Shown here piece after piece: positions 6,924 to 63,352 of a stretch of DNA of 64,000 nt (within the stretch, counting starts at the first letter, position 1; every line of letters begins with the position of its first letter). Position numbers and translations under genes: made by a program. Below the pieces are notes generated by a model that was not told the DNA's origin, searched no databases, and was given only the letters and a program-made list of their open reading frames with translations. The stretch comes from a virus. The stretch covers positions 64,001 to 128,000 of the IMG/VR virus record IMGVR_UViG_3300028840_006907; one strand, 5' to 3'.

Positions 6924-7682
6924 TTGGAGACATCTGTGAAGTATAGCGTACTTGTACCCTACTATAAACGCCTAGGGCACCTACATAATACCTTTATTTC
7001 CTTTCTACACCATTATTCAGATAGAAATGATTATGAGGTTGTCATAGCAGAAGATTATAAAAATGTCCAGAATAAAAAAGACCATGACGGTCTATCAGAA
7101 ACCATTGAGAAATTCCGTGAAAAAATACCGATAATTCATTTAACTCTTTCTATGGAAACCTGGAATCCAGCTCATGGTTTTAATGAAGCTGCAAAGTGGG
7201 CTTCTGGTGAATATTTCGTTGTAACCAATCCAGAATGTTTCCATCAAGTGAACATACTGGCTGGACTCGATAAAGAATTTGAAGAAGACCCCAATGTCTA
7301 TGTTGTATGTGGTTGTATGAATTATGTCCGTTGTAATTTTTTTATTAAAAACTTTAATGATCTAAATGGAAAATTTCAGAGATGGTACCAACACTCAATA
7401 CATAGAGCAGCCCACTATCATTTCTGTTCAGCTATTTCAAAACAGAATTGGGTAAAAATAGGAGGATTCGATGAAGACTTTGCTATGGGTATAGCCTATG
7501 ATGATGTCGATTTTAAATTAAGCATTCAAAAAGCCAAGATACCCTTTCATATCCGGGATGACCTTCTTACTATACATATTGACCATGGTTCCTTCCCATC
7601 TCCTCCAAATGCTCAGAAATTAGTTAATCGAAATAGAATCACCTATCAAAGAAAATGGGAAGGAAGTAATGAATCTTACTAG
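6924..7682 (+). CDS. family-2 glycosyltransferase
   Basis: YSVLVPYYKR N-terminus, EDY and DDVDF acidic motifs. The start may be GTG at 6936, 5 nt after GGAGA. Confidence 0.7.
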   Translation: METSVKYSVLVPYYKRLGHLHNTFISFLHHYSDRNDYEVVIAEDYKNVQNKKDHDGLSETIEKFREKIPIIHLTLSMETWNPAHGFNEAAKWASGEYFVVTNPECFHQVNILAGLDKEFEEDPNVYVVCGCMNYVRCNFFIKNFNDLNGKFQRWYQHSIHRAAHYHFCSAISKQNWVKIGGFDEDFAMGIAYDDVDFKLSIQKAKIPFHIRDDLLTIHIDHGSFPSPPNAQKLVNRNRITYQRKWEGSNESY

Positions 7683-9762
7683 TTATACCGCAGCCGACAG
7701 TATCCCGATAAAATTGATTAAGAACTTTAAATTGTTAAAGTCCATGACAACAAAAGGAGTCATCTTACCAATCCATGTCCAGTTCATACCCACAAATAGA
7801 TGTAACATGAAATGTGGATTTTGTAGCTGTGCTGAAGATGACAGAAAAACAGAAATGTCCCTTAAAAATGCTAAGAAGATCATCAGAAAATTAAAAAAAC
7901 TCGGTACTCAATCCGTAACCATCACCGGAGGAGGAGAACCACTCCTTTATCCTCATCTCCAAGAATTGTTTTCTCTGTTTAAAGATGCCGGGATAAAAAT
8001 CGGTTTTGTTACCAATGGCCTCTTATTAGGTAAATGTACCTATGAAGATGTAACCTGGTGTCGGATTTCTAATTCTGATGAAAGAAAAATGGACATGGAC
8101 TATTATCACACAATAGCTTATGCTGTTGAAGATAACCCAAACGTGGACTGGGCCTTTAGTCATGTCGTTTCTCCAAAACCAAATATCTCCGAAATAAAAC
8201 GGATCATAGAATTTGCCAATCTCCATGATTTTACCCATGTCCGATTAGTAGCTGATCTATTGAATTATAAAGAAGTAGATTTAATGCAGTTAAAAATCAC
8301 TCTTCGAGATGAAAATGTCGATGATGATAAAGTCATCTATCAAAGTAGAAATACCCCGCTCAGAGGCGGAGACTGTTATATATGCTATCTTAAACCCATG
8401 ATAGGGGCTGACTGTAATGTGTACGCTTGTTGTTTAGAGGCTAATGAACCTGTATTAATCCAGAGAAATAACGAAAGGATGTATTTATCTATAAAGGATG
8501 TTGTTCCAGGGGATTATGCTTGTGAATATGGAAAGATTTTAAATGTGTTTCATAAAGAGGGTGAAGAAGGCTTGGAAATAGTTTTGCAAAATAATAGGAC
8601 TATTTATGTTTCGAAAGATCATCTTATGCTTAAATTGACAAACCCTGAAATTAGACATAAGAGAAAGAAGTTATTATCTGACTATGAATTAGATACAATA
8701 GAATCTTCTGAATTAAGAATTGGAGATTTACTTCCGGTCAAATATAAATATGATATTAGTGAAATAAAAGAAGATACTATATCTGAAGAAGAAGCAGAAT
8801 TAATAGGATATTATGTAGCTGAAGGTTGGTCCAATGAACGAACTTGTATAGTTGATAAAAAATATCCTACTAGAACTACCACTATAGGATTTATGCTAGG
8901 GAAAGAGTCAAGAGAATATATAAGAAGATTTGAAGAAATTTGTGATATTTTGAATCTAAATTTTTCTATGACTGAACGTAGAACTGGTATGCAGTATCAG
9001 ATAGGTGCACATAAACCCTACGATGACTTAATTGTACACTGTGGTAATAAAGCAGAATTAAAAAAGATCCCTCCTTTTATTTTAAACGGCTCTGATAAAA
9101 TAAAGTGGAAATTTATTCAAGGCTATTTTGGAGGTGACGGGAATTTTCAAACTCCTTCTAAAAGCTATGATGGTTTTAAAATGAGAATGAGTACTGTCAG
9201 TAGACAACTAGCTAATGATATAATTTATCTCTTTTGTACTTTAAATATTCATGCTTCTATGAGAGTTGAGAGACGTGAAGGAAAAATGATAATAGAAGGA
9301 AGAGAGGTAAATGCTAAAGATCGGTATCATATAAATATAGGGGGAGCCTATAATTTAGAAAAAGCCCCATTCCTAAATGTAATTCAAACAAAAGAAAGAA
9401 GTCCTAAAAGAGCCCTCGGTTTTTTGAAAGATGAGGATAAGGGCATTATGTTTGTACCAGTTAAAGAGATCAGAGAGAAAAAGTTAGGAAAATTAGTAGA
9501 CATTCAAGTGGAAGGTTCAAATAAATTTATATCTTCATTTGGTATAATAGTTCATAATTGTGGCGTCCAGTATGCTCTTAAAAAGCCTTCAAAGAATCTT
9601 CCTAAGAAACTGAGCCTAGGAAGTGCTTTTGATCTTGAGAAGATAATTGAGAACAGTAATAAGCCCCTGGACGGGAGCATGTGTTATCGATGCTATTATA
9701 GTAATTATAACAAGATACTAGGATCCATCCTGGATGATACCGATCATATGGAGTTTGTATGA
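7669..9762 (+). CDS. radical SAM enzyme interrupted by an intein
   Basis: CNMKCGFC (CxxxCxxC) and a GGGEPLL SAM motif. The extein is 321 aa after removing residues encoded by 8431-9558. Confidence 0.85.
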   Translation: MNLTSYTAADSIPIKLIKNFKLLKSMTTKGVILPIHVQFIPTNRCNMKCGFCSCAEDDRKTEMSLKNAKKIIRKLKKLGTQSVTITGGGEPLLYPHLQELFSLFKDAGIKIGFVTNGLLLGKCTYEDVTWCRISNSDERKMDMDYYHTIAYAVEDNPNVDWAFSHVVSPKPNISEIKRIIEFANLHDFTHVRLVADLLNYKEVDLMQLKITLRDENVDDDKVIYQSRNTPLRGGDCYICYLKPMIGADCNVYACCLEANEPVLIQRNNERMYLSIKDVVPGDYACEYGKILNVFHKEGEEGLEIVLQNNRTIYVSKDHLMLKLTNPEIRHKRKKLLSDYELDTIESSELRIGDLLPVKYKYDISEIKEDTISEEEAELIGYYVAEGWSNERTCIVDKKYPTRTTTIGFMLGKESREYIRRFEEICDILNLNFSMTERRTGMQYQIGAHKPYDDLIVHCGNKAELKKIPPFILNGSDKIKWKFIQGYFGGDGNFQTPSKSYDGFKMRMSTVSRQLANDIIYLFCTLNIHASMRVERREGKMIIEGREVNAKDRYHINIGGAYNLEKAPFLNVIQTKERSPKRALGFLKDEDKGIMFVPVKEIREKKLGKLVDIQVEGSNKFISSFGIIVHNCGVQYALKKPSKNLPKKLSLGSAFDLEKIIENSNKPLDGSMCYRCYYSNYNKILGSILDDTDHMEFV
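8431..9558 (+). mobile_element. LAGLIDADG-type intein (376 aa) inside the radical SAM gene
   Basis: N-terminal junction YAC|CLEANEPVL; block B SKDH. Two LAGLIDADG motifs (LIGYYVAEGW, FIQGYFGGDGN). C-terminal junction GIIVHN|C. Confidence 0.85.
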
Positions 9763-11983: not shown

Positions 11984-12025
11984 TCTAGGAATGTAAAGTA
12001 TTAGAGGATTATTAAGGGGAGGGAA

Positions 12026-15018
12026 ACCCCGCTCAGATGCAGGGAAGAAGATTTCATTAAGAAGTTTTAGGAAGAGCCCCGCAGAGGAGGAACCTCGCAA
12101 GATGCGGGGAAAAGGAACTTCAGGCAATTGGCTGGGATTAGCCCCGCGAAGGTGCGGGGAAAACAGTTTCCATGAACTATATTAGGGAGAGCCCCGTTGA
12201 CACGGGGAAAAACCCGTCTTTACTTAGTGAGATCGAGGAAGGAACAGCCCCGTTGATACGGGGATAAAATAATATGACTTTTACGAATCCTCTAGGGACA
12301 GCCCTGCAGAGTGCAGGGAAAAGTAACGTCTGGGAATTGTTTAGGATTAGCCCCGCGAAGGTGCGGGGAAAGCCATAGATTTTATATTGACACAGGAAAA
12401 ACCCCGGTATAGTCCGGGGAAAAGTACGTAATCAAGATGTAAGAGGATTAGACCCGGCGAGTCCGGGAAAAGATTGGCCCAATCACTATTAAGTAGGGTG
12501 GGATAGCCCCGCAGAATGCAGGGAATAGATGCCTCACTTCATACCACTGCGTCAACCCCAGTAGAGTCCGGGGAACATGAGTGTAAATCTCTGTCGTAGG
12601 TTCAACCCCGGAGAGATCCAGGGGAAATGGGTACAACTTTGTGTACAAGGGGTAGCCCCGGAGAAATCCGAGGAAAATGAGTGTAAATCTGTGTTGAGGG
12701 TCCAGCCCCGCTCAGTGCAGGGAATATTAAGGGTCAAAACCGGTTGCCCCTGCGTCAACCCCGGTGAAGTCCGGGGAACATGAGTGTAAATCTCTGTGGT
12801 AGGATCAACCCCGCAGAGTGCAGGGAAAAATTGAACTTTTTAATCAACCCTGTAACAGCCCCGGAGTCAGTTTTGACAAGTCCGGGGGAATATCACTTCG
12901 TAAAGGAGTGGCTGTCAAGGGGGCAACCCCACAGAGATGTGGGGGAAAGTAAGCCAACGTTCCGGCATAGGCATAGCCCCTGAATTTACAGAGGGCAATT
13001 TTTCCAGTGTCCAGAAGAAGATGCAGGGAGAACCCCGGAAAGTCCAGGGGAAAATGTGTCACAGAACAACTCTTTGTGATCTCCAGGGTGAACCTCGCAG
13101 AGGTGCGGGGGAAAAGTGTCAATGAATACCAGTATGAGTCAGCCCCGGTATAGCCCGGGAATAATTACTTCTAGTCTGATAGAAGGTGCAACCCCGGGAA
13201 GTCCGGGGAAATCGGTCATAGCCATCTGGACCAGGAAGAACCCCGGTGAGATCCGGGGAAAAGGACGTTTAAATCCTGACATAGTAGCTAACTGAGGCGT
13301 AGCTCCGGTCGGGTCAGCCCTGCAGAGAGCAGGGAACAAACATAGGTAATAAATCGGCACGTGACAGCCCCGCAGAGAGGCGGGGATATATAGCGTGAGT
13401 TGCAGGGTAAGGTTCAACCCTTGTTTACCAAGGGAAAAATACCGGCAGATAAGAATTTAGGATGACCCCCGGTGAAAGTCCGGGGAAAATAATTAATACG
13501 CAAAACAGCAGGGCCAGTCCCGCGAGATGCAGGGAATGTTCAGCCAGTTTGTGTAATATTTCAGGAGACGGTGGTGCAACCCTGTCAAGGACAGGGATAT
13601 GCAACATCTGTGGCTCTACGAGGATCAGCCCCGGCAAGTCCGGGGAATTATCTTTTTATAAATGCCAAAAATAACAGTTGGGAGGGGCCAATTCCGCTGA
13701 TGCAGAAAGACATTTCATAATTAATATATTTATGGAAGAGCCCCGGTGAAATCCGGGGAAGTCAAGTAATTACAGCTCGCTGACCACTGGGGGTAGCCCC
13801 GGTAAGATCCGGGGAAAAGTTTGTTTTGAAACAAACGCTAGGAACAGCCCCGCTCAGGTGCGGGAGAATCACTGCATATTTGGTTAATGGCCCCCCTGAG
13901 TCAATCCCGCTCAGGTGCGGGGAAAATAAAGAGATAGACTAATTCAATATGCAGGAAGAACCCCGCTATATGCAGGAAAATTTAAAAAGTATGGATATCT
14001 CCTTGAGTCAACCCCGGAGATCCAGGGAAATGTAGGCACTCGTTGTCCTTTGTCGAAGTGTGAAGGGCAAACCTCGTTGATACGAGGAACAAATTTAGTT
14101 TTACTTTTGAATAAAAGTGGTCAAGCCCCGCTCAGGTGCAGGGAATAGATAAGTATACCGACGATAGCCAGGACAGCACCTGTGGTTTAGCCCTGCATGT
14201 GCAGGGAATAGTTGAGTTGAAGATTGAAGAAAAAGATAAAGTAGGGTCAGCTCTGCATGTGCAGAGAATAGCCTTTCTTCAAGCGTTGACTTGGGAGTAG
14301 GTGGGGATCAGCCCTGCACATGCAGGGAATAGAATGGTGAATCAAATTCCATTTTGTCAAAGAACGGCGACAGCCCTGCCAGTGCAGGGAATATGATTTT
14401 AACGATGGTAAAATTGGGAAGGGGTCAGCCCTGCACATGCAGGGAATAGTCGCTAGTTCAAATCCAATCGCCCCGACAGGATCAGCCCTGCATACGCAGG
14501 GAATAGAAAATACTGACGATAAACTAGCGATATGGGATCAGCCCTGCATACGCAGGGATATAGCTTGACGAATGGCCGTTTTAATGCCAGGAGTAACCCC
14601 GCTGCGAGGAATAGTCATTTCAAATATATAGGTAAAGCCCCGCGAAAGAGCGGGGGTATAATATGGCGGATTTTGTTCTATTGGTGGAATCCGGGCCATC
14701 CCCGTAGATTGACACGGGGAGATCTTTTAGAAATCTACCAAGGTGCCTTTCCGGAGTCATCCCCGTATATACGGGGGAGATTTCAATTCAGGGAATTTCG
14801 GTACAAAATTGGTCGGTTTATCCCCGTATACACGGGGAATATTGTTTCAATAGGGCATAGCAGATCTAGGATCGGGGAATCCCCGCAGGGGCGGGGAACA
14901 TCTCGGATTTATTAATCAAATTCAAACGTTTTTCGGGGAATCCCCGCAGGGGCGGGGAACATTGTTTTAAGAGGTGGTAGTTACCTCGTAGGGGAATCCC
15001 CGCAGGGGCGGGGAACAT
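12026..15018 (-). CRISPR. CRISPR array 1 with highly heterogeneous I-E-like repeats (~55 units)
   Basis: Three identical leader-proximal repeats, GGGGAATCCCCGCAGGGGCGGGGAACAT, start at 14874, 14935 and 14991. Read on the minus strand they are ATGTTCCCCGCCCCTGCGGGGATTCCCC, close to the type I-E consensus GTGTTCCCCGCGCCAGCGGGGATAAACCG. Hairpin units then continue every 49-62 bp down to ~12026. Confidence 0.9.
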
Positions 15019-15057
15019 ACTAAGTCATAATGCCATTCAAATCAAAGGTTTATAGGA

Positions 15058-15112
15058 ACCCTAATTTTCTACCAAAGAAAAATGTACTTGTCATGTATAA
15101 ATGTCAAAGAGC
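15058..15112 (-). promoter_or_regulatory. CRISPR leader, array 1
   Basis: accctaattttctaccaaa..gtacttg.c.t.tataaatgtcaaagagc is nearly identical to 22626-22677. The minus-strand reading contains TTGACA (15102-15107). Confidence 0.7.
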
Positions 15113-15127: not shown

Positions 15128-17359
15128 CTAGTGGATATACCGAATCCATTCATATCGAATTTTCATCGTTTTATAAGGAGCTTTTTTTCTCCCTGGAAAT
15201 ATGTTTCCTTCAAAAAGGAAAAATTTTTGAACAATTTTAAATTCAGCGTTTGATGGTGTCAAGCTCTGTGGTGCATAATCCGAACGCCAGTAATTATTAC
15301 AATATATAAATTTTTCTTCTCTGTCTTTTTGTATAAGGCCCGGAAACACCACTAAAACTATCTTTTCGTTTTCAATAACAATATCCCCTTGATAAATAGC
15401 TATTTCTAAATCCAGACCATCCTGCTCTATCACACGAGCATATTTCGAGAGTTTCCCATCAATCTTTACTTTAGCTTTAGGGGGAATATCAAAAGTTATC
15501 CATTCACCTTTTATGTCCTTAATGCTTTGAATAGGTTTTTTAACTGGAATTTCTTGAAAGACATGATCTTGGTATTCTGCTTTTTTAAGGATTTCTCCAT
15601 CTTTTTCCATATTAAGCAATAAAGCCTTTTCCATGATGTCTTTAAGTTCATAGAGATCTTTTTCAGTTAAGGGCTCTTTTGTTCCGAATACGATGGAACC
15701 TACATTCTCTAATCGAGCGATTTTATCAAAACCCTGTTTCCGGACAAAGTCTATGGTAATATGTTCTATTTTTCTATTTCTTGAAAGTCTTATGATTCTT
15801 ACAAATTCAGTTTTAATTGTGTCTTTGAAATTATCAAAACTTAAATGATCTTCTACGTAGGGATGATACAAATCCGCTATAAGACTTAATAAAATTTCTA
15901 TGTCTTCAGGTTTATCCTGTTTACGGTTGTAATCATAAGCTTTAATAATTTCTTGTCTCATTTCCATTAATATATCAGGAGCCATTATTTCACTTAAACT
16001 GGTAGATCCTTTTTTGTCCCGATAAAAGGGAGCTGTTGGAAGTAAGGGAATCCTGATAGCAGCACAAAGTTCTGACATTACAATTGAGGTTAAGAACAAA
16101 TTCAATCTGTCTGAATATAATGCCCTGATATTATTACGTTCTTCTTTTTTAATAGGTGGAACATAAATGTATAACCATATTTTATCTTTTTTAGGGTAAC
16201 ATCTGAAAATACGAAACATTATTTGAGAGAAGGTCACCTGACTCTTTCCATAACTTGTATTATGTAAAACAGCAGCAGGAGGCCAATCATACCCTTCATA
16301 GAATATTCTGCAAGATACGGCGACCCAGTATTTTTTATGATTACGTCTCAATAACTCTCTATTTTTTTTCTGAGTTTCCGGTGTGACTAAATCCAGTACT
16401 TTGGACGCAGGATATATTTCGTGAATAGCTTTTAAATATTTTTTAAGGGTTCCTTCCTCTCTGAACCGGTTCCCCATGTCAGGTAATATGACAATGTGTC
16501 TTTGATCTTTGTGCTCTTTCATATATCTAATGATCTGAGTAAGGGGATCTTTCCTATAGTGAGTGAAACGGAAATTGAATTCTTTGATTTTTATGATTGA
16601 GAGATAGTCATTTAATGGGATAACCCATTTTTCAAAATGATGTTTATAAGCATTGGGGACTATTTCTCCTCTGTCTGTGCGGTGGTAAGTAGCTGTATAA
16701 AAATTTACGTTACAAGTAGGTTCATGGATGGTACATACATCTCTGACAAAATCACCCAAATGAGTGGAATCTAGTGGGGTTGATTTTGAATGATGGCATT
16801 CATCTACATGTACAGTTAAATTTCTAAGGGCTTTCTTTTTTTCATAGTTGGTTAATTTTTCCCAGGTCATGACAAACCCTCTATGGGTAGCTGTAGCAAT
16901 AGGGCCTGTTATATGTTTTTCATTGTACGGGTATTTTCGAGGATCTGCTAAAAGGAATTCTTTAAGTCCTTTAATGGATTGAGGGTTTTCACTATTGAAT
17001 TTATGTTCTTTTGGTACTTCCCACAATCTTACCATACCTTTATATTTGATTTTTATTTGTCTATTTTGGGATCTGCAGAAATTTTCACCTATTTCTATTG
17101 TTGGTGCGATAAAGATATGTTTTCGAGTATTTTTAGATATTATGATTTCATCCAGGGATATGCATACTGCTAAAAAAGTTTTGCCGACTCCCCCTGGTGC
17201 ATCAAAGATCATGTATCTGAATTTTTTCCCATATTCTTTTGCATTGCATTGCCAGCCAGAGGGTATCATGATCCCTGATTCAAGTTTTTTATTATAGGTA
17301 CCAAGGTCAACCGGTTCTATTTTAATAGATTGCTGGAAAAGCGGTAATAGCTTTTTCAT
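15128..17359 (-). CDS. SF2 DExH helicase, Cas3'-like position, no HD nuclease domain
   Basis: Motif I APGGVGKT, motif II DECHH, motif III TAT, motif VI-like QIMFRIFR. Only ~55 aa precede the Walker A, so there is no room for an HD domain. Last gene of the cas operon. Confidence 0.75.
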   Translation of the reverse strand: MKKLLPLFQQSIKIEPVDLGTYNKKLESGIMIPSGWQCNAKEYGKKFRYMIFDAPGGVGKTFLAVCISLDEIIISKNTRKHIFIAPTIEIGENFCRSQNRQIKIKYKGMVRLWEVPKEHKFNSENPQSIKGLKEFLLADPRKYPYNEKHITGPIATATHRGFVMTWEKLTNYEKKKALRNLTVHVDECHHSKSTPLDSTHLGDFVRDVCTIHEPTCNVNFYTATYHRTDRGEIVPNAYKHHFEKWVIPLNDYLSIIKIKEFNFRFTHYRKDPLTQIIRYMKEHKDQRHIVILPDMGNRFREEGTLKKYLKAIHEIYPASKVLDLVTPETQKKNRELLRRNHKKYWVAVSCRIFYEGYDWPPAAVLHNTSYGKSQVTFSQIMFRIFRCYPKKDKIWLYIYVPPIKKEERNNIRALYSDRLNLFLTSIVMSELCAAIRIPLLPTAPFYRDKKGSTSLSEIMAPDILMEMRQEIIKAYDYNRKQDKPEDIEILLSLIADLYHPYVEDHLSFDNFKDTIKTEFVRIIRLSRNRKIEHITIDFVRKQGFDKIARLENVGSIVFGTKEPLTEKDLYELKDIMEKALLLNMEKDGEILKKAEYQDHVFQEIPVKKPIQSIKDIKGEWITFDIPPKAKVKIDGKLSKYARVIEQDGLDLEIAIYQGDIVIENEKIVLVVFPGLIQKDREEKFIYCNNYWRSDYAPQSLTPSNAEFKIVQKFFLFEGNIFPGRKKAPYKTMKIRYEWIRYIH

Positions 17360-17444
17360 TGTCTTTTTCCTCTCAAATAAGTCCTGGAAAGCCTTTTCAG
17401 GGGCTTTCCAGGATTAATGTACTGTGTATTCTATATCAACACTT

Positions 17445-17628: not shown

Positions 17629-18273
17629 TTAATAAGATTTATACGGTGCAATAAGCATCATACCACATCCGAAACCTTTACTCTTACCAATTCCATTATA
17701 AATAGTATTCACAAAAAGATTTTTATTGACTACCTGAAGGACTCCTCGTAAATCAATACTGAAAAAAGATACAACTTTACCATCTTTTTTTTTGAATTTA
17801 CAGAATTGAAAAGATTGAACGGAATGCTTTTGAATCATATTTTTAAAACCGTAACTTTGGCCACGTTTCTGAAGCCAATTCTTTGAGGATTCGTGAGCAA
17901 TGAAATTCCAATTATAGGGTTCATCAAGAACTTTCATTTCATTTGCCAGATCCGTCATGATTGAAACCTTTTTCCTGGTTTTCAATTTACAAACTTCGGC
18001 ATTGAGTCTGAGATCGTATTGAAGAAATATTCCAGATTTTAAATTATTTAAATCGAATACTTTTGTTTGTGTAGTGTATTCGTCCTCTGGAGGATTTGGT
18101 TTCTTTTTTGATATGATATAAAGTTCACCATTATAGAGATAATAAAGGAAATCTCTTACCCTGTTAGATCTTTGATCACCAAAAAATTCCCAGACTTTTT
18201 GATGAAGCTCATATATACCTTCGGTGGGAGAATATCTTCTCAAGCTGTCACTGTAAATTTTACTCAGAAACAT
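17629..18273 (-). CDS. cas6e: Cas6e (CasE) crRNA endoribonuclease
   Basis: MFLSKIY...YELHQKVWEFF...RDFLY and C-terminal GIGKSKGFGCGMMLIAP parallel E. coli CasE (MYLSKV...LHQGLW...GIGPAKSMGCGLLSLAP). AGGAGG lies 6 nt upstream of the ATG at 18273. Confidence 0.85.
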   Translation of the reverse strand: MFLSKIYSDSLRRYSPTEGIYELHQKVWEFFGDQRSNRVRDFLYYLYNGELYIISKKKPNPPEDEYTTQTKVFDLNNLKSGIFLQYDLRLNAEVCKLKTRKKVSIMTDLANEMKVLDEPYNWNFIAHESSKNWLQKRGQSYGFKNMIQKHSVQSFQFCKFKKKDGKVVSFFSIDLRGVLQVVNKNLFVNTIYNGIGKSKGFGCGMMLIAPYKSY

Positions 18274-18910
18274 TCGATACCTCCTTCCATCCCATATACT
18301 CAATTCGGGATCGGTATTGTTTGGGACCGGTTACCTGATCAAAACGTTGATTGCTTTTTACTATTTTGATACTGGTATCGGTACCTTCCCAAAATATTCG
18401 GTTCTTTTCACGCCCTTTAAGACTACCATTAAGAAATTCAGGAAGAGAGTACTGTTCAAACGCCTCTGAGAGGCTCTCAGCCTTAACGATCTTAGGATCG
18501 GGTGGTATGTCATAGGAACAGCATTTCCTTCCAAGAAAGGGGGTATAGATGGGCCTATTAAGGGCTTCCATTATTTTCTTCAAAGTATAGGGACAGTTTT
18601 CATTCTCCCATATACATACGGTAAAGATGGCATTGACTAGGTAAAATCTATTCGAGACAATTCCTGGTCCGACTCTGACAATATGGAAATCTTTTAGAAT
18701 AGTACCAGGATTATCTTCCCTACAGGCAAATCCTAGTTGGGCAATCTGAGTTAATTCTTTCACCATTTCTCTTGAGACTCCAAGAGAAGCAGCGATTAAC
18801 CCGCTTACGCCAGATTTGGTAGGGTGATCATCTGTCTTTCGGGTATTACCCTGAAGGGGGAGACCCCAGGCGGATAGAGTACCCGAAAGAAGGAATAATA
18901 AATAATTCAT
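18260..18910 (-). CDS. cas5e: Cas5e (CasD)
   Basis: MNYLLFLLSGTLSAWGLP...TRKT..HPTKSGVSGLIAASLGVSRE parallels the Cas5e N-terminus (LRLAGPMQAWG...PTRSGLLGLLGACLGI). Confidence 0.85.
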   Translation of the reverse strand: MNYLLFLLSGTLSAWGLPLQGNTRKTDDHPTKSGVSGLIAASLGVSREMVKELTQIAQLGFACREDNPGTILKDFHIVRVGPGIVSNRFYLVNAIFTVCIWENENCPYTLKKIMEALNRPIYTPFLGRKCCSYDIPPDPKIVKAESLSEAFEQYSLPEFLNGSLKGREKNRIFWEGTDTSIKIVKSNQRFDQVTGPKQYRSRIEYMGWKEVSNVSE

Positions 18911-18933: not shown

Positions 18934-20019
18934 TTAGAAATCGATGAATTTAATAAGTTCGTTAAGTGATCCTTCTTTTGTGAGTACATTCAAGATCCTA
19001 TAATCCATTTCATGGTAACATGAATCAAAACTACTTTTCATGTCAAGAAGGGCTTTGACAGCATTTTCCATAACCGCAGGACCTTTAATAGGAGTATGGA
19101 AGGCTTGACAGAGACTTCGTGGGGCAGTTGGAGCTTTTTCGATCATAACGAATGCTGGCCATGTTTGACTATCAGCACATCTGTTTTTATTAGCTGAGGG
19201 GGATGAAGTGGTTAATACTTCGACTATCTGTCGGATGGTTTTGATAGCTAGTTCTTTATTACCTTGAAGATTTTTCGTTAAGAGCTTGGAATTGATTACA
19301 AAGAAACTATAATAGACACCCTGGGTAAAATAGAAATTATCTAGGTGACCTGAACCTTTGGTTCCTTCTAATCCAAGGTTATCGGTAGCTGTAAAATAGT
19401 CGGTTTGGACAGATCCTATATCATTGACAGTAAAAGCGAAATTTGAGGACAGTGAAGCTTCAACATCATATTGGGGCAGTTTTGCAATCATGCGACCGGT
19501 AAGGGCTGTTCTGATTCCTGTATTTTCTTTTAAAAAGAAGAATTCTTGATCAGTGGGTTTATGCCCCTCAATAATTTTGTCAATCAGTTCTTCAATATGT
19601 TGTCTTTCGCTCGGTTGAATTTTAATGGTTTCGGTTTTAAGAAGATCAACCTTTTTTTTCTTTTTCTTTGTATTTTTATCATCTTCTTTTTCAGTGTGCT
19701 TTTTGATATCAACAAAAGTACCAATAAATTTAAATGCGTATTCTTCAGCTTTTTTAGGTGATATTCCACCATCAATTAATCTTTTCTCGACATATTTTCC
19801 AATAAGAGGAGTCTGAAGACCTATATCGATTTCGCACCTTTCAAATAGAGCCTTGTTTAAATCATATTTTCGATTTTGTGAAGACGAATAACCTCGGTTG
19901 GTATCATTAAGTTTCATTGTTTTAGGACGTCCGTCCTGGCCTCGGTTTATGCTAGATACAGCTACACCAGTGAGAAGGTGAATTAACCAGTAGGGGTCTT
20001 TAATAATAGTTTTAGACAT
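18934..20019 (-). CDS. cas7e: Cas7e (CasC/Cse4) backbone subunit
   Basis: LIHLLTGVAVSSINRGQDGRPKT...RGYSSSQNRKYDLNKAL parallels CasC (HVLISHSPSCLNRDD...RISSQSLKRAMR). 361 aa, like CasC. Confidence 0.85.
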   Translation of the reverse strand: MSKTIIKDPYWLIHLLTGVAVSSINRGQDGRPKTMKLNDTNRGYSSSQNRKYDLNKALFERCEIDIGLQTPLIGKYVEKRLIDGGISPKKAEEYAFKFIGTFVDIKKHTEKEDDKNTKKKKKKVDLLKTETIKIQPSERQHIEELIDKIIEGHKPTDQEFFFLKENTGIRTALTGRMIAKLPQYDVEASLSSNFAFTVNDIGSVQTDYFTATDNLGLEGTKGSGHLDNFYFTQGVYYSFFVINSKLLTKNLQGNKELAIKTIRQIVEVLTTSSPSANKNRCADSQTWPAFVMIEKAPTAPRSLCQAFHTPIKGPAVMENAVKALLDMKSSFDSCYHEMDYRILNVLTKEGSLNELIKFIDF

Positions 20020-20045: not shown

Positions 20046-21989
20046 TTATATGTTATTTGAATATTCTCTTTCCCAGTAGAACTTGACATCTTTGCTCCAG
20101 TGGGCATACCCTTCCATGAAACTGATGATGTTAAATCCTTCCATTCGAGAAACAACATCAGCAAATACTTTCCAGTTTTTTTGTATATCCGTTTTATTGA
20201 AACTCATCATTTCGTCAACATGTCGGCGGTTAATTTTTTGAGAACCCATTTGGGCACCGAAAGATTGAGAAAAATCCAGATCCTTAGCTTTAAAAACAAT
20301 TAGTAGAAGAGGTACGAAAAGAGTCTTCATATCTTCTGATCTTAAAGCAGGGAAATGCATAGACATTTCTAAAATAAAATTCAAATAAAGGTCTTCATGT
20401 TTTAAGATATCGATGTCAAAACATCGGGTAAATACCCTATGTTTTTCTGTATTTCTAATAGTCCCGTACCAGGACAGGAATGGTTTGGTAAAGACCTGGT
20501 TAAAATGAGGTAGGTTTAATTTCCTGTATTCGATATGGGCGAAATTCTCATATTCTAATGGTTGTAGTTTAAGAGGTTTAACAACTTTTTTATTTAAGGT
20601 TTCGATAAATTGTTCCTTAAAATATTTCTGTAAACCTCTCTTTTCAGTACCTACATTTTTTTCAAATGTATCGAAAGCTTTAACTACCATCTTTTCCAAC
20701 CATTTTTCGATATTATGATTCTTGAGAACTTCATAGAAGTATTCTTCAGTTTCTGTCAGAAATTCGTGAAATATTAAAGGTTCGGTTTTATCAGTTCCCC
20801 AGAACTTTCTTATATAATTACAGGTATACCATCCTATAAGATATGAGTGTTCTCTGATATTTAAAGTAAACGCACTATCTTTATAGAGTTCTTCTGGGAT
20901 ATCGAATTTATTTTCCTCCCATCCAAAGAGTTTGGCTTTAGCCATATTATAACCGAAAGTCCATAATCCGAAATCAGTTATTCCAAGATATTCTCGGTTC
21001 TCCATGAAATGACTCACCACTAAAGCTGGAGTTAATTTTTTAGCTGGTAGTAGATAGGTCACAAGATCGAGATGGCTGGTAAAGTCCAGGGGTTTCCGGA
21101 AACCTGTTTCTTTGCCTTTTATAATGGGTGAAAGGATATGACGTGGTTTGACATAACAGTTACCATAATTCCTCGTTTTTATCTTTCTAACCATTAATTT
21201 GGAATGATTGCCACAGATAGTACATGATTCATCAAATTTATCAAAGATAAGATGAATACGTAGAGGCATTTCCCAGAGCGGGTAATAAGGATTCATCTCA
21301 TCCAGGGAAACAGTAGCTTTGTTTTTACTATCAACGGTATCACTAAGCCATGGGAGTGTTACACCTTTTGGATTTCCTCCGAATTCAAACATGGTCTTTT
21401 TAATAATAACATTAGACCATATTGTTTCCCATAACGTGGAACCGGTAATAATAGTGGTAAGAGAACCATTGGCACCGGCTGTTATCGAAGTACGGTATCC
21501 TTGGCCTCCCATAATGGCACTGAGTTGATTAAGATAAAGGGCAATTGTAGCACAGGATTGGCAAAAAGTATGTATCTTTGCTTTTTGGAAGAAATCTTTA
21601 CCAGCTTTAATTGTCGCTGTCCCTGGAGTATCAAAGAGGAGATTACCAACATTTACGATTCTTTCAAGGTCCTGTGGCCGTTTATCCTGTAAAAAACGAG
21701 GACCTTTGCCATCTAGTTCAAAGAGTTTTGGTTTAAGTTTTTCTAGGATGGCTTTTTGGTTTGGTGCTTTTTTGAATAGTTTTTTCCATTCTTTCTTACT
21801 TGTAGGAGCAAGATAAGTGTTGAAAAAACCTATGAGAAGCCGTACACCTACAGCATTGAAATCGGGTCTACCGAAATCGAGAGCTATTATAGGGTTATTA
21901 GGTTTTGAAGTTATTTTGTAGGGTGGAATGTTTTCCCTGGTACCGTCTTTTCGGATGACGGGGATCCAAGGGTCCTTAATTACATTCAT
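20046..21989 (-). CDS. cas8e: Cas8e (Cse1) large subunit with fused Cas11/Cse2-like C-terminal domain
   Basis: N-terminus MNVIKDPWIPV and CQSCATIALYLNQ...GGQGYR parallel Cse1 (NWIPV; CGGCTAIALFNQ...GGGFK). The C-terminal ~170 aa (SFGAQMGSQKINRRHVDEMM...HWSKDVKFYWEREY) parallels Cse2 (SLGRALANSGRINERRIFQLI...WWGKRERQQLLEDF). There is no separate cas11 gene. Confidence 0.8.
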   Translation of the reverse strand: MNVIKDPWIPVIRKDGTRENIPPYKITSKPNNPIIALDFGRPDFNAVGVRLLIGFFNTYLAPTSKKEWKKLFKKAPNQKAILEKLKPKLFELDGKGPRFLQDKRPQDLERIVNVGNLLFDTPGTATIKAGKDFFQKAKIHTFCQSCATIALYLNQLSAIMGGQGYRTSITAGANGSLTTIITGSTLWETIWSNVIIKKTMFEFGGNPKGVTLPWLSDTVDSKNKATVSLDEMNPYYPLWEMPLRIHLIFDKFDESCTICGNHSKLMVRKIKTRNYGNCYVKPRHILSPIIKGKETGFRKPLDFTSHLDLVTYLLPAKKLTPALVVSHFMENREYLGITDFGLWTFGYNMAKAKLFGWEENKFDIPEELYKDSAFTLNIREHSYLIGWYTCNYIRKFWGTDKTEPLIFHEFLTETEEYFYEVLKNHNIEKWLEKMVVKAFDTFEKNVGTEKRGLQKYFKEQFIETLNKKVVKPLKLQPLEYENFAHIEYRKLNLPHFNQVFTKPFLSWYGTIRNTEKHRVFTRCFDIDILKHEDLYLNFILEMSMHFPALRSEDMKTLFVPLLLIVFKAKDLDFSQSFGAQMGSQKINRRHVDEMMSFNKTDIQKNWKVFADVVSRMEGFNIISFMEGYAHWSKDVKFYWEREYSNNI

Positions 21990-22210: not shown

Positions 22211-22236
22211 ATTTCCTCCGTTTACACGGAGGAAAT
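22211..22236. promoter_or_regulatory. perfect 10-bp inverted repeat between array 2 and the cas promoter
   Basis: atttcctccg tttaca cggaggaaat. Could terminate the array-2 transcript or act as an operator. Confidence 0.45.
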
Positions 22237-22266
22237 TTAGGATTATATCAGAGATGGGCTCTGAGA

Positions 22267-22586
22267 CAGCCCCGGTAAAGTCCAGGGAAATAAAAATTAG
22301 TGATAATTCGGGAATCAGCAGGAGGAGAGCATCAGCCCTGCGTATGCGGGGAATAGTGTTATCGTCTTACAGGATGTAAAGCAGAGACAGCCCCGCGTAT
22401 GCGGGGAATAGAAATTAATACATCTCATAAAATCTAGCATCAGCCCCGCGTATGCGGGGAATAGTTATTTATCTATACTTCCTACAACTCCCATAACGCA
22501 TCAGCCCCGCGTATGCGGGGAATAGCTCGTTGGTTTTCCCATTCCACAAAAGTTCAACGCATCAGCCCCGCGTATGCGGGGAATAG
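22267..22586 (-). CRISPR. CRISPR array 2 (6 repeats)
   Basis: GCATCAGCCCCGCGTATGCGGGGAATAG occurs at 22437, 22498 and 22559, with variants at 22329 and 22384 and a divergent unit at 22267. The two leader-proximal spacers are 33 nt. Minus-strand reading is CTATTCCCCGCATACGCGGGGCTGATGC. Confidence 0.9.
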
Positions 22587-22625
22587 ACTATAATATAATT
22601 AGTTGAAAATCAGAGAGTTACAAAG

Positions 22626-22677
22626 ACCCTAATTTTCTACCAAAAAAAGTACTTGCCGTTTATAAATGTCAAAGAGC
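22626..22677 (-). promoter_or_regulatory. CRISPR leader, array 2
   Basis: Near-identical copy of 15058-15112, including TTGACA on the minus strand (22667-22672). Confidence 0.7.
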
Positions 22678-22683
22678 TTATCT

Positions 22684-22857
22684 TTAAAGGTATAAATCCT
22701 CTTCATCCTCAGGAGCCAGATCTATATCTGAAAGAGTTCTGCTCCCACCGAAATCTAATTCTAATACTTCATCTTCTCCACCTGTATTAAAAAAATCATC
22801 TTCTTCACTTGGCTCTTTAAGAATCTCATCAGCATCGTATTCTTCGATTGGTAACAT
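22684..22857 (-). CDS. highly acidic 57-aa protein
   Basis: MLPIEEYDADEILKEPSEEDDFFNTGGEDEVLELDF...EDEEDLYL, hand-translated. Ends 7 nt before the array-2 leader. Confidence 0.45.
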   Translation of the reverse strand: MLPIEEYDADEILKEPSEEDDFFNTGGEDEVLELDFGGSRTLSDIDLAPEDEEDLYL

Positions 22858-34425: not shown

Positions 34426-34502
34426 TGGTACCCCAATCAGGACTCTAACCTGAAATCTTTGGCTCCGGAAACCAACGCTTTATACAATTAAGCTATTGGG
34501 GC
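34426..34502 (-). tRNA. tRNA-Arg(CCG)
   Basis: Hand-folded cloverleaf: acceptor GCCCCAA/TTGGGGT, anticodon loop TTCCGGA, T-loop TTAGAGT, CCA encoded. Confidence 0.85.
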
Positions 34503-34511
34503 ATTATAAGA

Positions 34512-34586
34512 TGGCGGTGCGTAAGGGAATCGAACCCTTGCCAGGAGATCGACAGTCTCCGGTCCTAACCACTGAACGAACGCACC
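34512..34586 (-). tRNA. tRNA-Asp(GTC)
   Basis: Acceptor GGTGCGT/ACGCACC, anticodon loop CTGTCGA, T-loop TTCGATT, CCA encoded. Confidence 0.9.
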
Positions 34587-34782
34587 GTATTTTTATTAAT
34601 CAATTTTTTTATTTCCGATAAAAAGACCGCAGTCGCATTGCCGAGCCATTTTCGTTTTATTCTTTATTACAATGCCTATTGCTTTAATAGGCTTTTTACA
34701 AGTGTTGCAAATATTTTGCTGTGTCTTTTTGTCATGCTGTTTCACTGCTGTTTTAGCCATTACTTGTACTCCTTAAATGTTA

Positions 34783-34856
34783 TGGCAGGGACGGTCAGAT
34801 TCGAACTGACATCGCCGGTTTTGGAGACCGGGTGCTTGACCGTTAGCGACGCCCCT
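34783..34856 (-). tRNA. tRNA-Trp(CCA)
   Basis: Acceptor AGGGGCG/CGTCCCT, anticodon loop CTCCAAA, T-loop TTCGAAT, CCA encoded. Confidence 0.85.
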
Positions 34857-35062
34857 GTATTGACAAATTTTTCATGATTTGAACCATTCACTACAACCTT
34901 CGGCTAGTTCTAATAAATGAACACAAGGTTTTGTTTCTTTTGCCAGAACACAGCCACACACTGTACAAATTACCACAGCAGGTTTCAAATCATGTTTCTC
35001 AATTTCAGCGAATGCTTTCACTATATCATTCACTATATCATTCATTTTTTCTCCGAATTATC

Positions 35063-35135
35063 TGGGCGCAGACGGACTTGAACCGCCCACGAATGGCTTA
35101 TGAGACCACTACTCTACCGACTGAGTTATACGCCC
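35063..35135 (-). tRNA. tRNA-Met/Ile2(CAT)
   Basis: Acceptor GGGCGTA/TGCGCCC, anticodon loop CTCATAA, T-loop TTCAAGT. Confidence 0.85.
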
Positions 35136-35143
35136 TTGACTTA

Positions 35144-35221
35144 TGGCACACCCGGCACGATTTGAACGTGCGACTTCTTCGTTCGTGGCGAAGATCTCTA
35201 TCCGGACTGAGTTACGGGTGC
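35144..35221 (-). tRNA. tRNA-Arg(ACG)
   Basis: Acceptor GCACCCG/CGGGTGT, anticodon loop CCACGAA (note C rather than U at position 33), CCA encoded. Confidence 0.75.
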
Positions 35222-35227
35222 GTATTT

Positions 35228-35728: not shown

Positions 35729-35748
35729 ATATTAATTTTTCTTTCTAA

Positions 35749-35821
35749 TAGGGGTACGGGGAGTCGAACCCCGGTCGTGGGAGAGAAAATCCCATATCCT
35801 AAGCCATTAGAAGATACCCCC
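35749..35821 (-). tRNA. tRNA-Glu(TTC)
   Basis: Acceptor GGGGGTA/TACCCCT, anticodon loop TTTTCTC, T-loop TTCGACT. Confidence 0.85.
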
Positions 35822-47789: not shown

Positions 47790-47872
47790 CATTCTTTAAG
47801 TGGTATACACAACTTAAAGAGCGGTCCTTCATGTTAACGTAGGTAATTTTCTCTGTAAGTTGTTGATTTATA

Positions 47873-53794: not shown

Positions 53795-53868
53795 GCCGGA
53801 ATAGCTCAGTTGGCCAGAGCGGTTGATTTGTAATCAATTCGTCGGGGGTTCGAATCCCTCTTTCGGCT
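53795..53868 (+). tRNA. tRNA-Thr(TGT)
   Basis: Acceptor GCCGGAA/TTTCGGC, anticodon loop TTTGTAA, T-loop TTCGAAT. Confidence 0.85.
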
Positions 53869-53934
53869 TGTAAATTTATTTGGAAAGGAGATGACATGAT
53901 GGCGAAAGTGTGATACTTAAACAAAGGAGCCGTT

Positions 53935-54294: not shown

Positions 54295-54314
54295 ATGCAT
54301 ATAAAGGGGAAATA

Positions 54315-54683: not shown

Positions 54684-54689
54684 AAATGG

Positions 54690-62845: not shown

Positions 62846-62858
62846 GTTCTTTGAAATA

Positions 62859-63275: not shown

Positions 63276-63352
63276 TAAAAACAATAGTTATCAAAAGGTA
63301 ACTATAAGTTCTTTGACATTTCGGTTATTATGAAGTAAGCACATATTTATAT

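Follow-up and report, generated by a model that had tools for sequence, protein, structure and literature searches.

Two CRISPR arrays of a probable huge phage share a leader of the family found beside cas1e-cas2e in Fibrobacterota

We analyzed a 64-kb stretch of viral DNA (hereafter the window). The carrier genome is large and phage-like, with many tRNAs and a tmRNA, and is probably that of a huge phage. A type I-E Cascade operon and a helicase gene sit between two CRISPR arrays, A and B, all on the minus strand. The features are listed below.

12019..15018, minus strand: array A, about 55–60 repeat units, the first three repeats near-identical (ATGTTCCCCGCCCCTGCGGGGATTCCCC)
15019..15112, minus strand: leader A (94 nt), flanked by the helicase gene's stop at 15128 and by the first repeat of array A
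15128..17359, minus strand: superfamily-2 helicase (ResIII/DEAD), 743 aa, at the cas operon's 3' end, downstream of cas6e
17629..18303, minus strand: cas6e, 224 aa, match to the Cas6e model
18260..18910, minus strand: cas5e, 216 aa, match to the Cas5e model
18934..20019, minus strand: cas7e, 361 aa, match to the Cas7e model
20046..21989, minus strand: cas8e (cse1), 647 aa, match to the Cas8e model
22262..22586, minus strand: array B, with about 6 units of repeat CTATTCCCCGCATACGCGGGGCTGATGCG; its two newest spacers are 32 nt long
22587..22677, minus strand: leader B (91 nt), flanked by the stop of a 57-aa acidic ORF at 22684 and by the first repeat of array B

The cas operon contained no separate cse2 gene, and the cas region gave no match among GenBank phage records. 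The effector proteins matched Cas8e, Cas7e, Cas5e, and Cas6e, and not the Csf effectors and DinG/Csf4 helicase of type IV-A. The helicase matched ResIII/DEAD only, in addition to a weak match to the Cas3 helicase model; none of the Cas3 HD-domain families was matched, and no relatives with a solved structure were found. The 743-aa protein is the only candidate for a Cas3 substitute. The initial annotation had pointed to a conserved leader without Cas1-Cas2, which agrees with our searches: tblastn with Cas1e and Cas2e queries detected neither gene in the window, and neither is annotated within 10 kb on either side on the 388-kb source contig. No HU/IHF gene was detected in the window by tblastn. 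The window covers 64 kb of a 388–470-kb genome, so the remainder may contain cas1/cas2 or an IHF/HU gene.

The two arrays differ in their repeats, with 17 of 29 positions identical between their first repeats, and share a block at the high-coordinate end of each array. The initial annotation had described these blocks as near-identical and as upstream for minus-strand transcription, and both statements held. A minus-strand alignment of 15112..15058 (55 nt) with 22677..22626 (52 nt) had 49 identical columns out of 55, the others being 3 mismatches and 3 gaps. Two exact words, the 17-mer TATAAATGTCAAAGAGC and the 19-mer ACCCTAATTTTCTACCAAA, occurred at only two sites in the 64 kb, both in the blocks; no third copy of the block was found in the window, and the observed count was reached in 0 of 100 shuffles. 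The blocks are upstream of their arrays because repeat polarity and cas operon share the minus-strand orientation. The repeats read xxxTTCCCCGC..GCGGGG followed by an 8-nt handle on that strand, as in type I-E. The handles of the two repeat types are ATTCCCCG and CTGATGCG.

The similarity between the blocks ended sharply at the 5' G of GCTCTTTGACA, and the next 40 nt upstream were identical at just 7 positions. The upstream contexts also differ, being the 3' end of the helicase gene for block A (leader A begins 16 nt past its stop) and the 3' end of the 57-aa acidic ORF for block B. The sharp edge and the differing contexts indicate that the block is not part of a larger duplicated segment, a possibility raised in the initial annotation. 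On the other side, the stretch from the block to repeat 1 was exactly 39 nt in both leaders. This stretch had been described as about 40 nt and non-conserved; the length stands, whereas the lack of conservation does not, with 22 of 39 positions identical (about 30% expected from base composition), an IHF-like site, and a conserved junction with the repeat. The modules of the two leaders are given below, with negative positions counted from repeat 1.

15081..15112, minus strand: leader A promoter-like module, GCTCTTTGACAT, with TTGACA at 15107..15102, a 15-nt spacer, and TACATT at 15086..15081 after AAG
15063..15076, minus strand: leader A integrase-anchoring-like module TTTGGTAGAAAATT, -58..-45, with GGTA at 15073..15070 (-55..-52), 51 nt from repeat 1
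15040..15052, plus strand: leader A IHF-consensus site AATCAAAGGTTTA, -34..-22, a sequence match with 0 mismatches to WATCAANNNNTTR
15019..15023, minus strand: leader A leader-repeat junction TTAGT, directly upstream of repeat 1
22646..22677, minus strand: leader B promoter-like module, with TTGACA at 22672..22667, a 15-nt spacer, and TACTTT at 22651..22646
22631..22644, minus strand: leader B TTTGGTAGAAAATT, -58..-45, with GGTA at 22641..22638 (-55..-52)
22608..22620, plus strand: leader B IHF-like site AATCAGAGAGTTA, -34..-22, a sequence match with 1 mismatch to WATCAANNNNTTR

Judged by its sequence, each block covers the upstream two-thirds of a minus-strand type I-E CRISPR leader that is itself complete. 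On the transcribed strand, both leaders immediately precede repeat 1, carry a conserved sequence motif at about -44..-59, and have a predicted WATCAANNNNTTR site between the anchoring-like motif and the junction; the adjacent cas1e-cas2e genes of type I-E are absent from the window and its 10-kb flanks. The initial annotation had equated the leader with the 52–55-nt block. The block does belong to the leader, but the functional unit would be the whole 94/91-nt leader. The last 58 nt of leader A aligned without gaps with 9 other leaders of the family, in which positions -5..-1 read TTAGT or TAGA (TTTTAGA in E. coli).

The first module, GCTCTTTGACAT followed after 11 nt by AAGTAC(A/T)T, was conserved in all eight first-round leaders. 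The initial annotation had noted TTGACA with a weak -10 (TACATT/TACTTT) at 15 nt, all of which the sequence bears out. The -35/-10 spacing was 15 nt in both window leaders and 14–16 nt in the phage-type leaders, and this spacing together with the weak -10 hexamer makes a poor sigma-70 promoter; the promoter scan accepted spacings of 16–18 nt, and the 15-nt TTGACA..TACATT/TACTTT arrangement falls outside that range. We infer a promoter role from the conservation of the module, its retention as the sole module in L012, L015, and L016, and its recurrence near tRNA genes. The window holds 5 matches to the promoter-module 12-mer where 0.06 would be expected; among them are two extra copies outside the leaders.

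63308..63319, plus strand: GTTCTTTGACAT, 35 nt upstream of a tRNA gene (63354–63428)
62846..62857, plus strand: GTTCTTTGAAAT, intergenic, within the tRNA cluster

Two other promoter candidates were rejected. A Bacteroidetes-type promoter, with TTTG at -33 and TAnnTTTG at -7 (PMC7366714, PMC2483708), fits the leader but was not adopted; the leaders of the Fibrobacterota relatives have a 16–17-nt sigma-70-like spacing, and about 70% of the window genes have Shine-Dalgarno-like sequences. A strong sigma-70-like site inside the helicase gene (15262..15234) was taken as a chance match. Such sites were not in excess over shuffles in the promoter scan, inspection by eye found no TTGACA in the equivalent region of the related locus L013, and nothing equivalent was present upstream of array B.

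In the E. coli leader, the conserved region -44..-59 includes the integrase-anchoring site (-50..-53), and -9..-35 holds the IHF site (PMC5224486). We compared these positions across the leaders. The distance from GGTA to repeat 1 was exactly 51 nt in 8 of 8 leaders, and the distance from GGTA to the promoter module varied from 1 to 8 nt. GGT(A/G) was found at -54..-56 in all 14 type I-E leaders compared, E. coli included, and TTGGT(A/G)G at this position reaches Syntrophus, an Omnitrophica-like locus, and E. coli K-12. The IHF consensus fits -34..-22 in 7 of 8 leaders, with 12 summed mismatches there versus 33–57 at other offsets; a sum of 12 was reached in 0 of 20000 shuffles, a statistic that overstates independence because the leaders are kin. 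The search for IHF-like and integrase-anchoring motifs suggested in the initial annotation thus returned both, the IHF consensus at -34..-22 and GGTA at -55..-52.

The leader family extends well beyond the window. The whole leader is kept in four other cas1/2-less loci (L013, L017, L018, and L027), where Cas7 or the helicase is merely 33–57% identical. The same family occurs directly downstream of cas1e-cas2e in two metagenome contigs (L029 and L030), and also in Chitinispirillum alkaliphilum (reference genome GCA_001045525.1), a Fibrobacter MAG, and a Chitinivibrionales MAG; these last three leaders were retrieved via Cas1e homology alone, with no leader pattern imposed. The leaders of L029, L030, and L034–L036 follow cas2e. 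The identity between phage and bacterial leaders was just 47–55% over the last 58 nt. Searches by sequence pattern were unproductive: the exact 17-mer had 9 matches in IMG/VR, all chance matches with dissimilar flanks; the leader pattern had no matches in IMG/VR and 8 in the GTDB representative genomes, all by chance and with no arrays nearby; and a Cas7 peptide scan of IMG/VR found no relatives. The comparison with candidate host I-E leaders, also suggested in the initial annotation, therefore places the conserved leader common to both arrays in a family that stands beside cas1e-cas2e in Fibrobacterota.

The Fibrobacterota type I-E leaders share with the phage leaders the motif G(C/A/T)TCTTTGAAAT, the TTAGT junction, GGTA at -55/-56 followed by an equal fixed-length stretch to repeat 1, and, except in L036, a -10-like element AAGTAC(A/C/T)T. 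Their repeats begin, like those of array A, with ATGTTCCCCG (the 5' half of the repeat). They differ in that the leader follows cas1e-cas2e in complete systems with Cas3 and Cse2, in that the -35/-10 spacing is 16–17 nt rather than the 14–16 nt of phage-type leaders, and in that their Cascade proteins are about 25–27% identical to the phage ones. The E. coli type I-E leader resembles the phage leaders in being AT-rich, in abutting repeat 1 with a T-rich ..TTAG(T/A) junction, in carrying TTGGT(A/G)G at a closely similar distance (E. coli GGTG at -54, phage GGTA at -55), and in having an IHF-consensus match, predicted in the phage, between the GGT motif and the junction. It differs in lacking the promoter module GCTCTTTGA(C/A)AT and in standing beside cas1-cas2, of which the phage window has none.

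The arrays themselves were composite. In array A, the last base of the repeat was T in repeat 1 and G in repeats 2–3; units 4–6 resemble Fibrobacterota repeats (the handle of unit 4 is ATAAACCG), units 9–15 carry array-B-like repeats (20–23 of 29 positions identical), and the older part consists of very divergent hairpins with a 49–51-nt period. At the leader end, two 61-nt units of array B carry identical repeats, and array A has its three near-identical repeats, a 61-nt period in 4 of the first six, and a newest spacer of 27 nt. Many older array A spacers are about 19–26 nt long, some of them duplicated. Spacers of 27 nt and about 19–26 nt are not what a strict Cas1e-Cas2e ruler would produce, which argues against integration in trans. 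Among the relatives, the L027 array has fully regular 29+32 units, and L013 has a 32-nt spacer that agrees at 31 of 32 positions with the helicase gene of L016, a related element, L013's own copy having diverged. The near-identical leader-proximal repeats and mostly 61-nt periods of arrays A and B, the regular units of L027, and the L013 protospacer match may be signs of real spacer acquisition. The four newest spacers had no exact 22-nt match in IMG/VR, and no spacer self-targets were found in the window. No leader-end spacer variants were seen; the other contigs with an identical Cas7 (L010 and L011) were 100% identical to the window. L011 ends inside array B.

We consider it fairly probable that the leader has two roles, as a pre-crRNA promoter and as a landing pad on which Cas1e-Cas2e of the host acts in trans. 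Complete leaders like those of Fibrobacterota, with no spacer-inserting genes nearby, suggest that the phage probably borrows the insertion machinery of its host. The module GCTCTTTGACAT, 11 nt, AAGTAC(A/T)T would probably drive pre-crRNA synthesis, with a start a few bases before GGTA. The TTTGGTAGAAAATT module, with GGTA at -55..-52, would be the counterpart of the E. coli integrase-anchoring site contacted by Cas1-Cas2. In the fixed 39-nt stretch, a bending protein at -34..-22 would fold the TTTGGTAGAAAATT module back onto the junction, and the TTAGT junction with repeat 1 would be the insertion point for new spacers. Cas1e-Cas2e and the bending protein from a Fibrobacterota-like host would then add spacers to the phage arrays in trans. 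The initial annotation had proposed a docking site for host adaptation proteins, and the Fibrobacterota leaders, the position of GGTA, and the IHF-consensus site lend support to that proposal, integration itself being predicted from these features. A fuller version, in which Cas1e-Cas2e and the bending protein of a Fibrobacterota host load spacers against rival phages into an active landing pad and the stack of repeat types in array A records acquisition or capture in successive hosts, is tentative, and we regard it as possible rather than probable. More speculatively, the 3-kb tail of array A, with about 50 diversified Cas6e-type hairpins and spacers of about 19 nt, may be a decoy or regulatory RNA, not an immune memory.

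The leader might instead only transcribe the arrays, with no insertion by Cas1-Cas2, its other motifs being relics or serving transcription or regulation. L012, L015, and L016 are in line with such a role, since they retain the promoter-like module as the sole leader module, G(C/T)TCTTTGA(C/A)AT, directly upstream of degenerate arrays; so are the 12-mer upstream of a tRNA gene, the ancient look of most of array A (duplication and divergence, with spacers of roughly 19 nt), and the lack of strain-level spacer turnover in L010 and L011. However, relics are expected to decay, as they have in L012, L015, and L016, whereas six cas1/2-less leaders hold the integration modules at exactly 51 nt from repeat 1 with a varying distance to the promoter module, even though their Cas proteins are 33–57% identical. 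Regular 29+32 units with identical repeats also adjoin the leader in L027 and array B, and L013 has a protospacer-derived spacer. We consider a promoter-only leader unlikely, at something like one chance in several.

Quite improbable, in our assessment, is that leader and repeats serve as homology for swapping leader-proximal segments with the arrays of a host or of co-infecting relatives, so that spacers arrive by recombination. This would account for the blocks of differing repeats under one leader in array A (units 1–3, the host-like units 4–6, and the array-B-like units 9–15), for the block of regular 29+32 units mid-way in the degenerate array of L015, and for L012, which has no array B at the equivalent position; recombination has also been proposed for leaderless phage mini-arrays (PMC6858448). 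The 47–55% identity to the known bacterial leaders is, however, too low for efficient homologous recombination, and the exact 51-nt spacing and the positional IHF-like motif are left unexplained.

It is very improbable that array B and its leader are a functionless recent copy of the leader A region, made by duplication or gene conversion. Array-B-like repeats inside array A and the missing array B of L012 would fit a copy, in that array B may stem from leader A and its then-first repeats. Yet the conservation between leaders A and B is uneven (89% in the block, 56% in the following 39 nt), the same conserved and variable pattern recurs in loci with 33–57% identical proteins and in bacteria, and an origin by duplication is in any case compatible with function. 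Least probable of all is a structured RNA, for example regulatory or tracr-like, in the 5' part of the pre-crRNA: the transcript would include GGTAGAAAATT.. if it starts after TACATT, but the sequence is AT-rich, RNAalifold found 0 consensus pairs across 7 leaders, and no Rfam family matched at the leader blocks.

The reading that we favor, a promoter combined with a landing pad used in trans, has parallels in known systems. CRISPR-Cas systems of type IV-A3 on plasmids acquire spacers in trans with host Cas1/2e (bioRxiv 10.1101/2023.06.23.546257). Like the phage, they have a mobile carrier, no adaptation module (for the phage, in the window and its 10-kb flanks), a helicase in place of the nuclease, a type I-E-like leader and repeats, and spacers against competitors (on the phage side, L013 against L016). 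They differ in having Csf proteins and DinG, whereas the phage, probably a huge one, has a Cas8e/7e/5e/6e Cascade and a non-DinG helicase. Acquisition in trans has been demonstrated for the plasmids; for the phage it is suggested by a leader and repeat that resemble, in sequence, those of a Cas1-Cas2-bearing system of candidate hosts, the Fibrobacterota type I-E system. The Sulfolobales viruses SPV1 and SPV2 carry mini-CRISPR arrays with promoter-containing, host-like leaders, for which insertion by the host module has been inferred and whose spacers target related viruses (PMC6858448). These are likewise viral arrays behind host-like leaders, and they differ in having no cas genes, 1–2 spacers, and archaeal type I-A/III hosts, whereas the phage brings its own Cascade and has an array of 3 kb. 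Huge-phage CRISPR-Cas systems without Cas1/Cas2/Cas4, some with a helicase for Cas3, have also been described, and use of host Cas proteins was proposed (PMC7162821). The likeness lies in the large phage-like genome with its many tRNAs and tmRNA, a type I variant that lacks adaptation genes, and a helicase for Cas3; the published example is a type I-C variant, whereas the present system is type I-E-like, and the passages considered here compare repeats with those of hosts, not leader architecture.

The leader would thus explain how a CRISPR system of a phage, lacking adaptation genes, could still gain spacers, and the explanation is testable. The elements required by Cas1-Cas2 and IHF in E. 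coli are kept in it with spacing exact to the base pair. Earlier work demonstrated the strategy in type IV-A3 plasmids and put it forward for archaeal viruses and huge phages; the present locus adds a well-resolved case and no new principle. The leader can be split into a promoter module specific to the clade and an integration module common to all type I-E leaders compared, which helps in the annotation of orphan arrays. The match to Fibrobacterota cas1e-cas2e leaders points to candidate donors of the machinery and to a clade that may host an uncultured huge phage. If the fuller landing-pad version is true, leader homology would be a new usable signal for the host assignment of huge phages.

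We compared the two leaders of the window on the minus strand, where they and their shared block lie as follows.

22677..22587 (minus strand), leader B, 91 nt, before array B
22677..22626 (minus strand), block forming the upstream part of leader B
15112..15019 (minus strand), leader A, 94 nt, before array A
15112..15058 (minus strand), block forming the upstream part of leader A

Of the 55 columns in the alignment of the two blocks, 49 were identical, 3 were mismatches, and 3 were gaps. Their exact 17-mer and 19-mer cores occurred at these two sites only within the window, a count reached in 0 of 100 shuffles, and the near-identity described in the initial annotation was borne out. That annotation had also raised the possibility that the block is part of a larger duplicated segment. 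The similarity began sharply in both copies at the 5′ G of GCTCTTTGACA, identity over the 40 nt upstream was 7/40, and the upstream neighbours were different (3′ end of the helicase gene for A, 3′ end of a 57-aa acidic ORF for B), which contradicts a larger duplication. The roughly 40-nt stretch before repeat 1, previously called non-conserved, was exactly 39 nt in both leaders and 22/39 identical, against a random expectation of about 30%. The observation is confirmed, and its interpretation as leaders is supported with these corrections.

The sequence of the window recurred at 100% identity within a 388-kb JGI contig, and contigs of up to 470 kb encoded the same protein. Its G+C content was 35%, it carried 19 tRNA genes and one tmRNA gene, and most of its scanned ORFs had no match to any annotated family. 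No structural phage genes were identified within the window, which likely belongs to a huge phage or similar mobile element, "phage" not being a proven label. The full-length tmRNA gene (47870-48282) was accompanied by three tRNA gene clusters (34429-35821, 53795-55325, and 60768-63428), and the total of 19 includes a 104-nt call at 63069-63172 that was barely above threshold. A radical SAM protein (7669-9762) was interrupted by an intein, which carries a homing-endonuclease domain of the LAGLIDADG type.

All features between the blocks were on the minus strand, and the order was leader B, array B, cas8e (647 aa), cas7e, cas5e, cas6e, a 743-aa ResIII/DEAD helicase, leader A, and array A (about 3 kb). 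The helicase matched no HD-domain family of Cas3. The absence of Cas1-Cas2 beside a conserved leader, initially pointed out, held: tblastn with Cas1e and Cas2e queries found neither gene in the window, and no cas1 or cas2 was annotated within 10 kb on either side on the source contig. Matches to Cse1 models covered about the first 375 residues of the cas8e product (20046-21989) and no further. A separate cse2/cas11 gene was lacking, and its role may have been taken over by the C-terminal 270 residues. Between cas6e and the helicase gene, a G+C-rich hairpin of 12 bp with a T-rich tail behind it (17382-17413, minus strand) resembles an intrinsic terminator within the cas operon, and a second hairpin of 11 bp (22211-22236) was located between array B and cas8e. 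A very acidic small ORF was kept upstream of the operon in the window (22684-22857, 57 aa) and in the related locus L012 (L012:2501-2665, 54 aa). In L012, cas8e follows this ORF directly and array B is absent, so array B and its leader were either inserted in the lineage of the window or lost in L012.

Using Cas7 and helicase homologues, we collected further loci without cas1 and cas2, seven in all (L012, L013, L015, L016, L017, L018, and L027), L027 having been reached through a DNA pattern instead of protein homology. The helicase or Cas7 of L013, L017, L018, and L027 was just 33-57% identical to that of the window, yet their arrays were preceded by the same leader: GCTCTTTGA(C/A)AT, 10-12 nt, AAGnAC(A/T)T, 1-8 nt, GGTA, exactly 51 nt, and repeat 1. 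The distance from GGTA to the junction was rigid and that from GGTA to the promoter-like module was variable, which indicates that the integration site, and not the promoter, sets the position of GGTA. In L012, L015, and L016, the sole remnant of the leader was G(C/T)TCTTTGA(C/A)AT, directly upstream of degenerate repeat units and present in two copies in L016. The more distant relatives L017 and L018 contained an extra ORF of roughly 200 aa between cas6e and the helicase gene (L017:9396-10004; L018:9399-10004) and another of roughly 110 aa between the helicase gene and the leader (L017:12289-12618; L018:12307-12639); the L018 copies, which were the ones scanned, matched no PADLOC defence family.

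A comparison with candidate host type I-E leaders and a search for integrase-anchoring and IHF-like motifs had been suggested in the initial annotation. We scanned metagenomes with a pattern from the phage leaders that left the distance to the repeat and the downstream sequence unconstrained, and obtained two contigs with cas1e-cas2e, L029 and L030. L029 carries a complete type I-E locus (Cas3, Cse1, Cse2, Cas6e, Cas7, Cas5, Cas1e, and Cas2e), and in both contigs the leader starts immediately after cas2e. Traits outside the pattern agreed with the phage leaders, namely the 51-nt spacing, the -34..-22 motif (positions counted upstream from repeat 1), the TTAGT junction, and the repeat start ATGTTCCCCG. 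As a safeguard against ascertainment bias, further loci were fetched solely by homology to the Cas1e of L029, the closest named homologues of which were from Fibrobacter MAGs (89-91% identical) and Chitinispirillum alkaliphilum (85%).

Table. Leader features of loci fetched by Cas1e homology and of the E. coli reference (locus; 5′ module; GGT(A/G) position; TTAGT junction).
L034, Chitinispirillum alkaliphilum; yes; -55; yes
L035, Fibrobacter MAG; yes; -56; yes
L036, Chitinivibrionales MAG; yes; -55; yes
L037, Omnitrophica-like; no; -56; yes
L038, Syntrophus; no; -54; no (ends AGAAGT)
E. coli K-12, reference; no; -54; no (ends TTTTAGA)

The same leader thus stands beside cas1e-cas2e in L029, L030, and L034-L036, and TTGGT(A/G)G is kept in L037, L038, and E. 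coli K-12, which all lack the 5′ module. In E. coli, the integrase-anchoring site at -50..-53, within a conserved block at -44..-59, and the IHF site at -9..-35 are experimentally needed for integration (PMC5224486); TTGGT(A/G)G falls where those experiments place integration elements, here by likeness of sequence. Leaders A and B are very probably true type I-E leaders and homologues of the leaders found next to cas1e-cas2e.

The E. coli case prompted a search for the IHF consensus WATCAANNNNTTR. Read on the bottom strand at -34..-22, the consensus fitted leader A and L027 with 0 mismatches, leader B and L017 with 1, and L013, L029, and L030 with 2. The summed mismatches were 12 at this offset and 33-57 at other offsets, and 0 of 20000 shuffles reached 12, the leaders being mutually related and not eight independent events. 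The stretch at -34..-22 is a positionally conserved motif matching the IHF consensus and a predicted site.

In regard to transcription, the window leaders contain TTGACA and, after a 15-nt spacer, TACATT or TACTTT, a poor sigma-70 fit that agrees with the weak -10 element first described; the bacterial versions of the module have 16-17-nt spacers. The 12-mer G(C/T)TCTTTGA(C/A)AT occurred 5 times in the window, compared with 0.06 expected. Four of these copies were intergenic and either preceded non-coding RNA genes or lay among them: at the two arrays, 35 nt before the tRNA gene at 63354, and at 62846 in the same tRNA cluster. The excess near RNA genes and the sole retention of this element in L012, L015, and L016 point to a promoter role for the first 32 nt of the leader, and predicted promoter activity is the best reading of this segment. 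The fifth copy, GTTCTTTGACAT (48760-48771, plus strand), is inside and antisense to ORF 48383-49201, just past the tmRNA gene. A Bacteroidetes-type -33/-7 promoter fits by its letters (PMC7366714, PMC2483708) but was not adopted, because about 70% of the window genes have Shine-Dalgarno-like sequences and the bacterial relatives are Fibrobacterota with 16-17-nt sigma-70-like spacing. RNAalifold found no conserved RNA structure in the leader. ORF 52524-53405 (293 aa) matches a phage RNA polymerase sigma-factor family, and this element-encoded factor could recognise the unusual promoters. That the leaders serve as promoters only would fit the distribution of the 12-mer and is rather unlikely given the rigid placement of GGTA relative to the integration site.

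Several observations point to genuinely acquired spacers in arrays of this kind. The leader-adjacent units of L027 were perfectly regular (29+32), array B began with two 61-nt units with identical repeats, and array A began with three near-identical repeats, four of its first six periods measuring 61 nt. The newest spacer of array A, at 27 nt, fits this picture less well. Spacer 5 of L013 (32 nt, L013:5333-5364) matched the helicase gene of L016 at 31/32 positions (L016:1663-1693; upstream flank AAA), and the corresponding region of L013 itself was just 77% identical. Here one element targets a relative, as has been reported for virus mini-arrays (PMC6858448) and huge phages (PMC7162821), and the target lies in the rival's own CRISPR locus.

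In their older parts, arrays A and B as well as those of the relatives had 17-26-nt spacers, a 49-51-nt period, duplicated spacers, and very divergent hairpins with stems preserved by changes on both sides. In array A, this part (12019-14640, roughly 2.6 kb) held about 50 Cas6e-type hairpins with widely differing stems (CCCCGG/CCGGGG, CCCTGC/GCAGGG, CCCCGT/ACGGGG, CCTCGT/ACGAGG, CCCTTG/CAAGGG, and CCCCACA/TGTGGGG), and the fall of the period from 61 to 49-51 nt leaves roughly 19-nt spacers. Similarly degenerate arrays were present in all related loci with enough array sequence (L012:7205-8640, L013:5010-7596, L015:2180-3330, and L016:3140-3720). Such parts could be old memory in decay, or decoy or regulatory RNA under selection. 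Array A also contained duplicated spacer-repeat units (12544-12831 and 12103-12371): an 85-nt two-unit segment was repeated at 85% identity, and a spacer ..CAGAGATTTACACTCAT occurred three times with small changes. The duplicated units indicate that the distal array grows by tandem duplication as well as by insertion.

Units 1-3 of array A have one repeat type, units 4-6 (14699-14842) are near Fibrobacterota type I-E repeats, and units 9-15 are array-B-like, which indicates that the leader-adjacent repeat was swapped several times under an unchanged leader. A mutated repeat 1 copied at each insertion, or array segments captured by recombination, could explain these strata. Three different 5′ handles stand against a single Cascade: those of the current repeat types, ATTCCCCG (array A, leader-proximal) and CTGATGCG (array B), and a third, the 8-nt ATAAACCG of unit 4, which is identical to the E. 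coli handle. In L015, six regular 29-nt repeats with 32-nt spacers (CTATTTCCCGCGTGCGCGGGGATAAACCT, L015:2360-2700) lie amid the degenerate array, three degenerate units away from the promoter module, which suggests ectopic insertion or recombination capture. L011 (Logan SRR6963591), an independent assembly of the same element, ends at window position 22524, between repeats 1 and 2 of array B. The repeats could have made the assembly fail there, or the population could vary at the leader end.

On balance, the leaders probably act both as a promoter and as an in-trans integration site, as predicted roles. The element would do without adaptation genes of its own and rely on host Cas1-Cas2, to which its leader and repeat would remain compatible. 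Experiments have demonstrated this strategy for plasmid type IV-A3 systems with Cas1/2e (bioRxiv 10.1101/2023.06.23.546257); it has been inferred for mini-arrays of archaeal viruses, the leaders of which are host-like (PMC6858448), and suggested for huge phages from repeat similarity (PMC7162821). The present analysis adds a phage example of the type I-E-like kind, leader anatomy at base resolution, a link from phage leaders to Fibrobacterota leaders, and a division of the leader into two modules, a promoter module that is clade-specific and an integration module common to all compared type I-E leaders.
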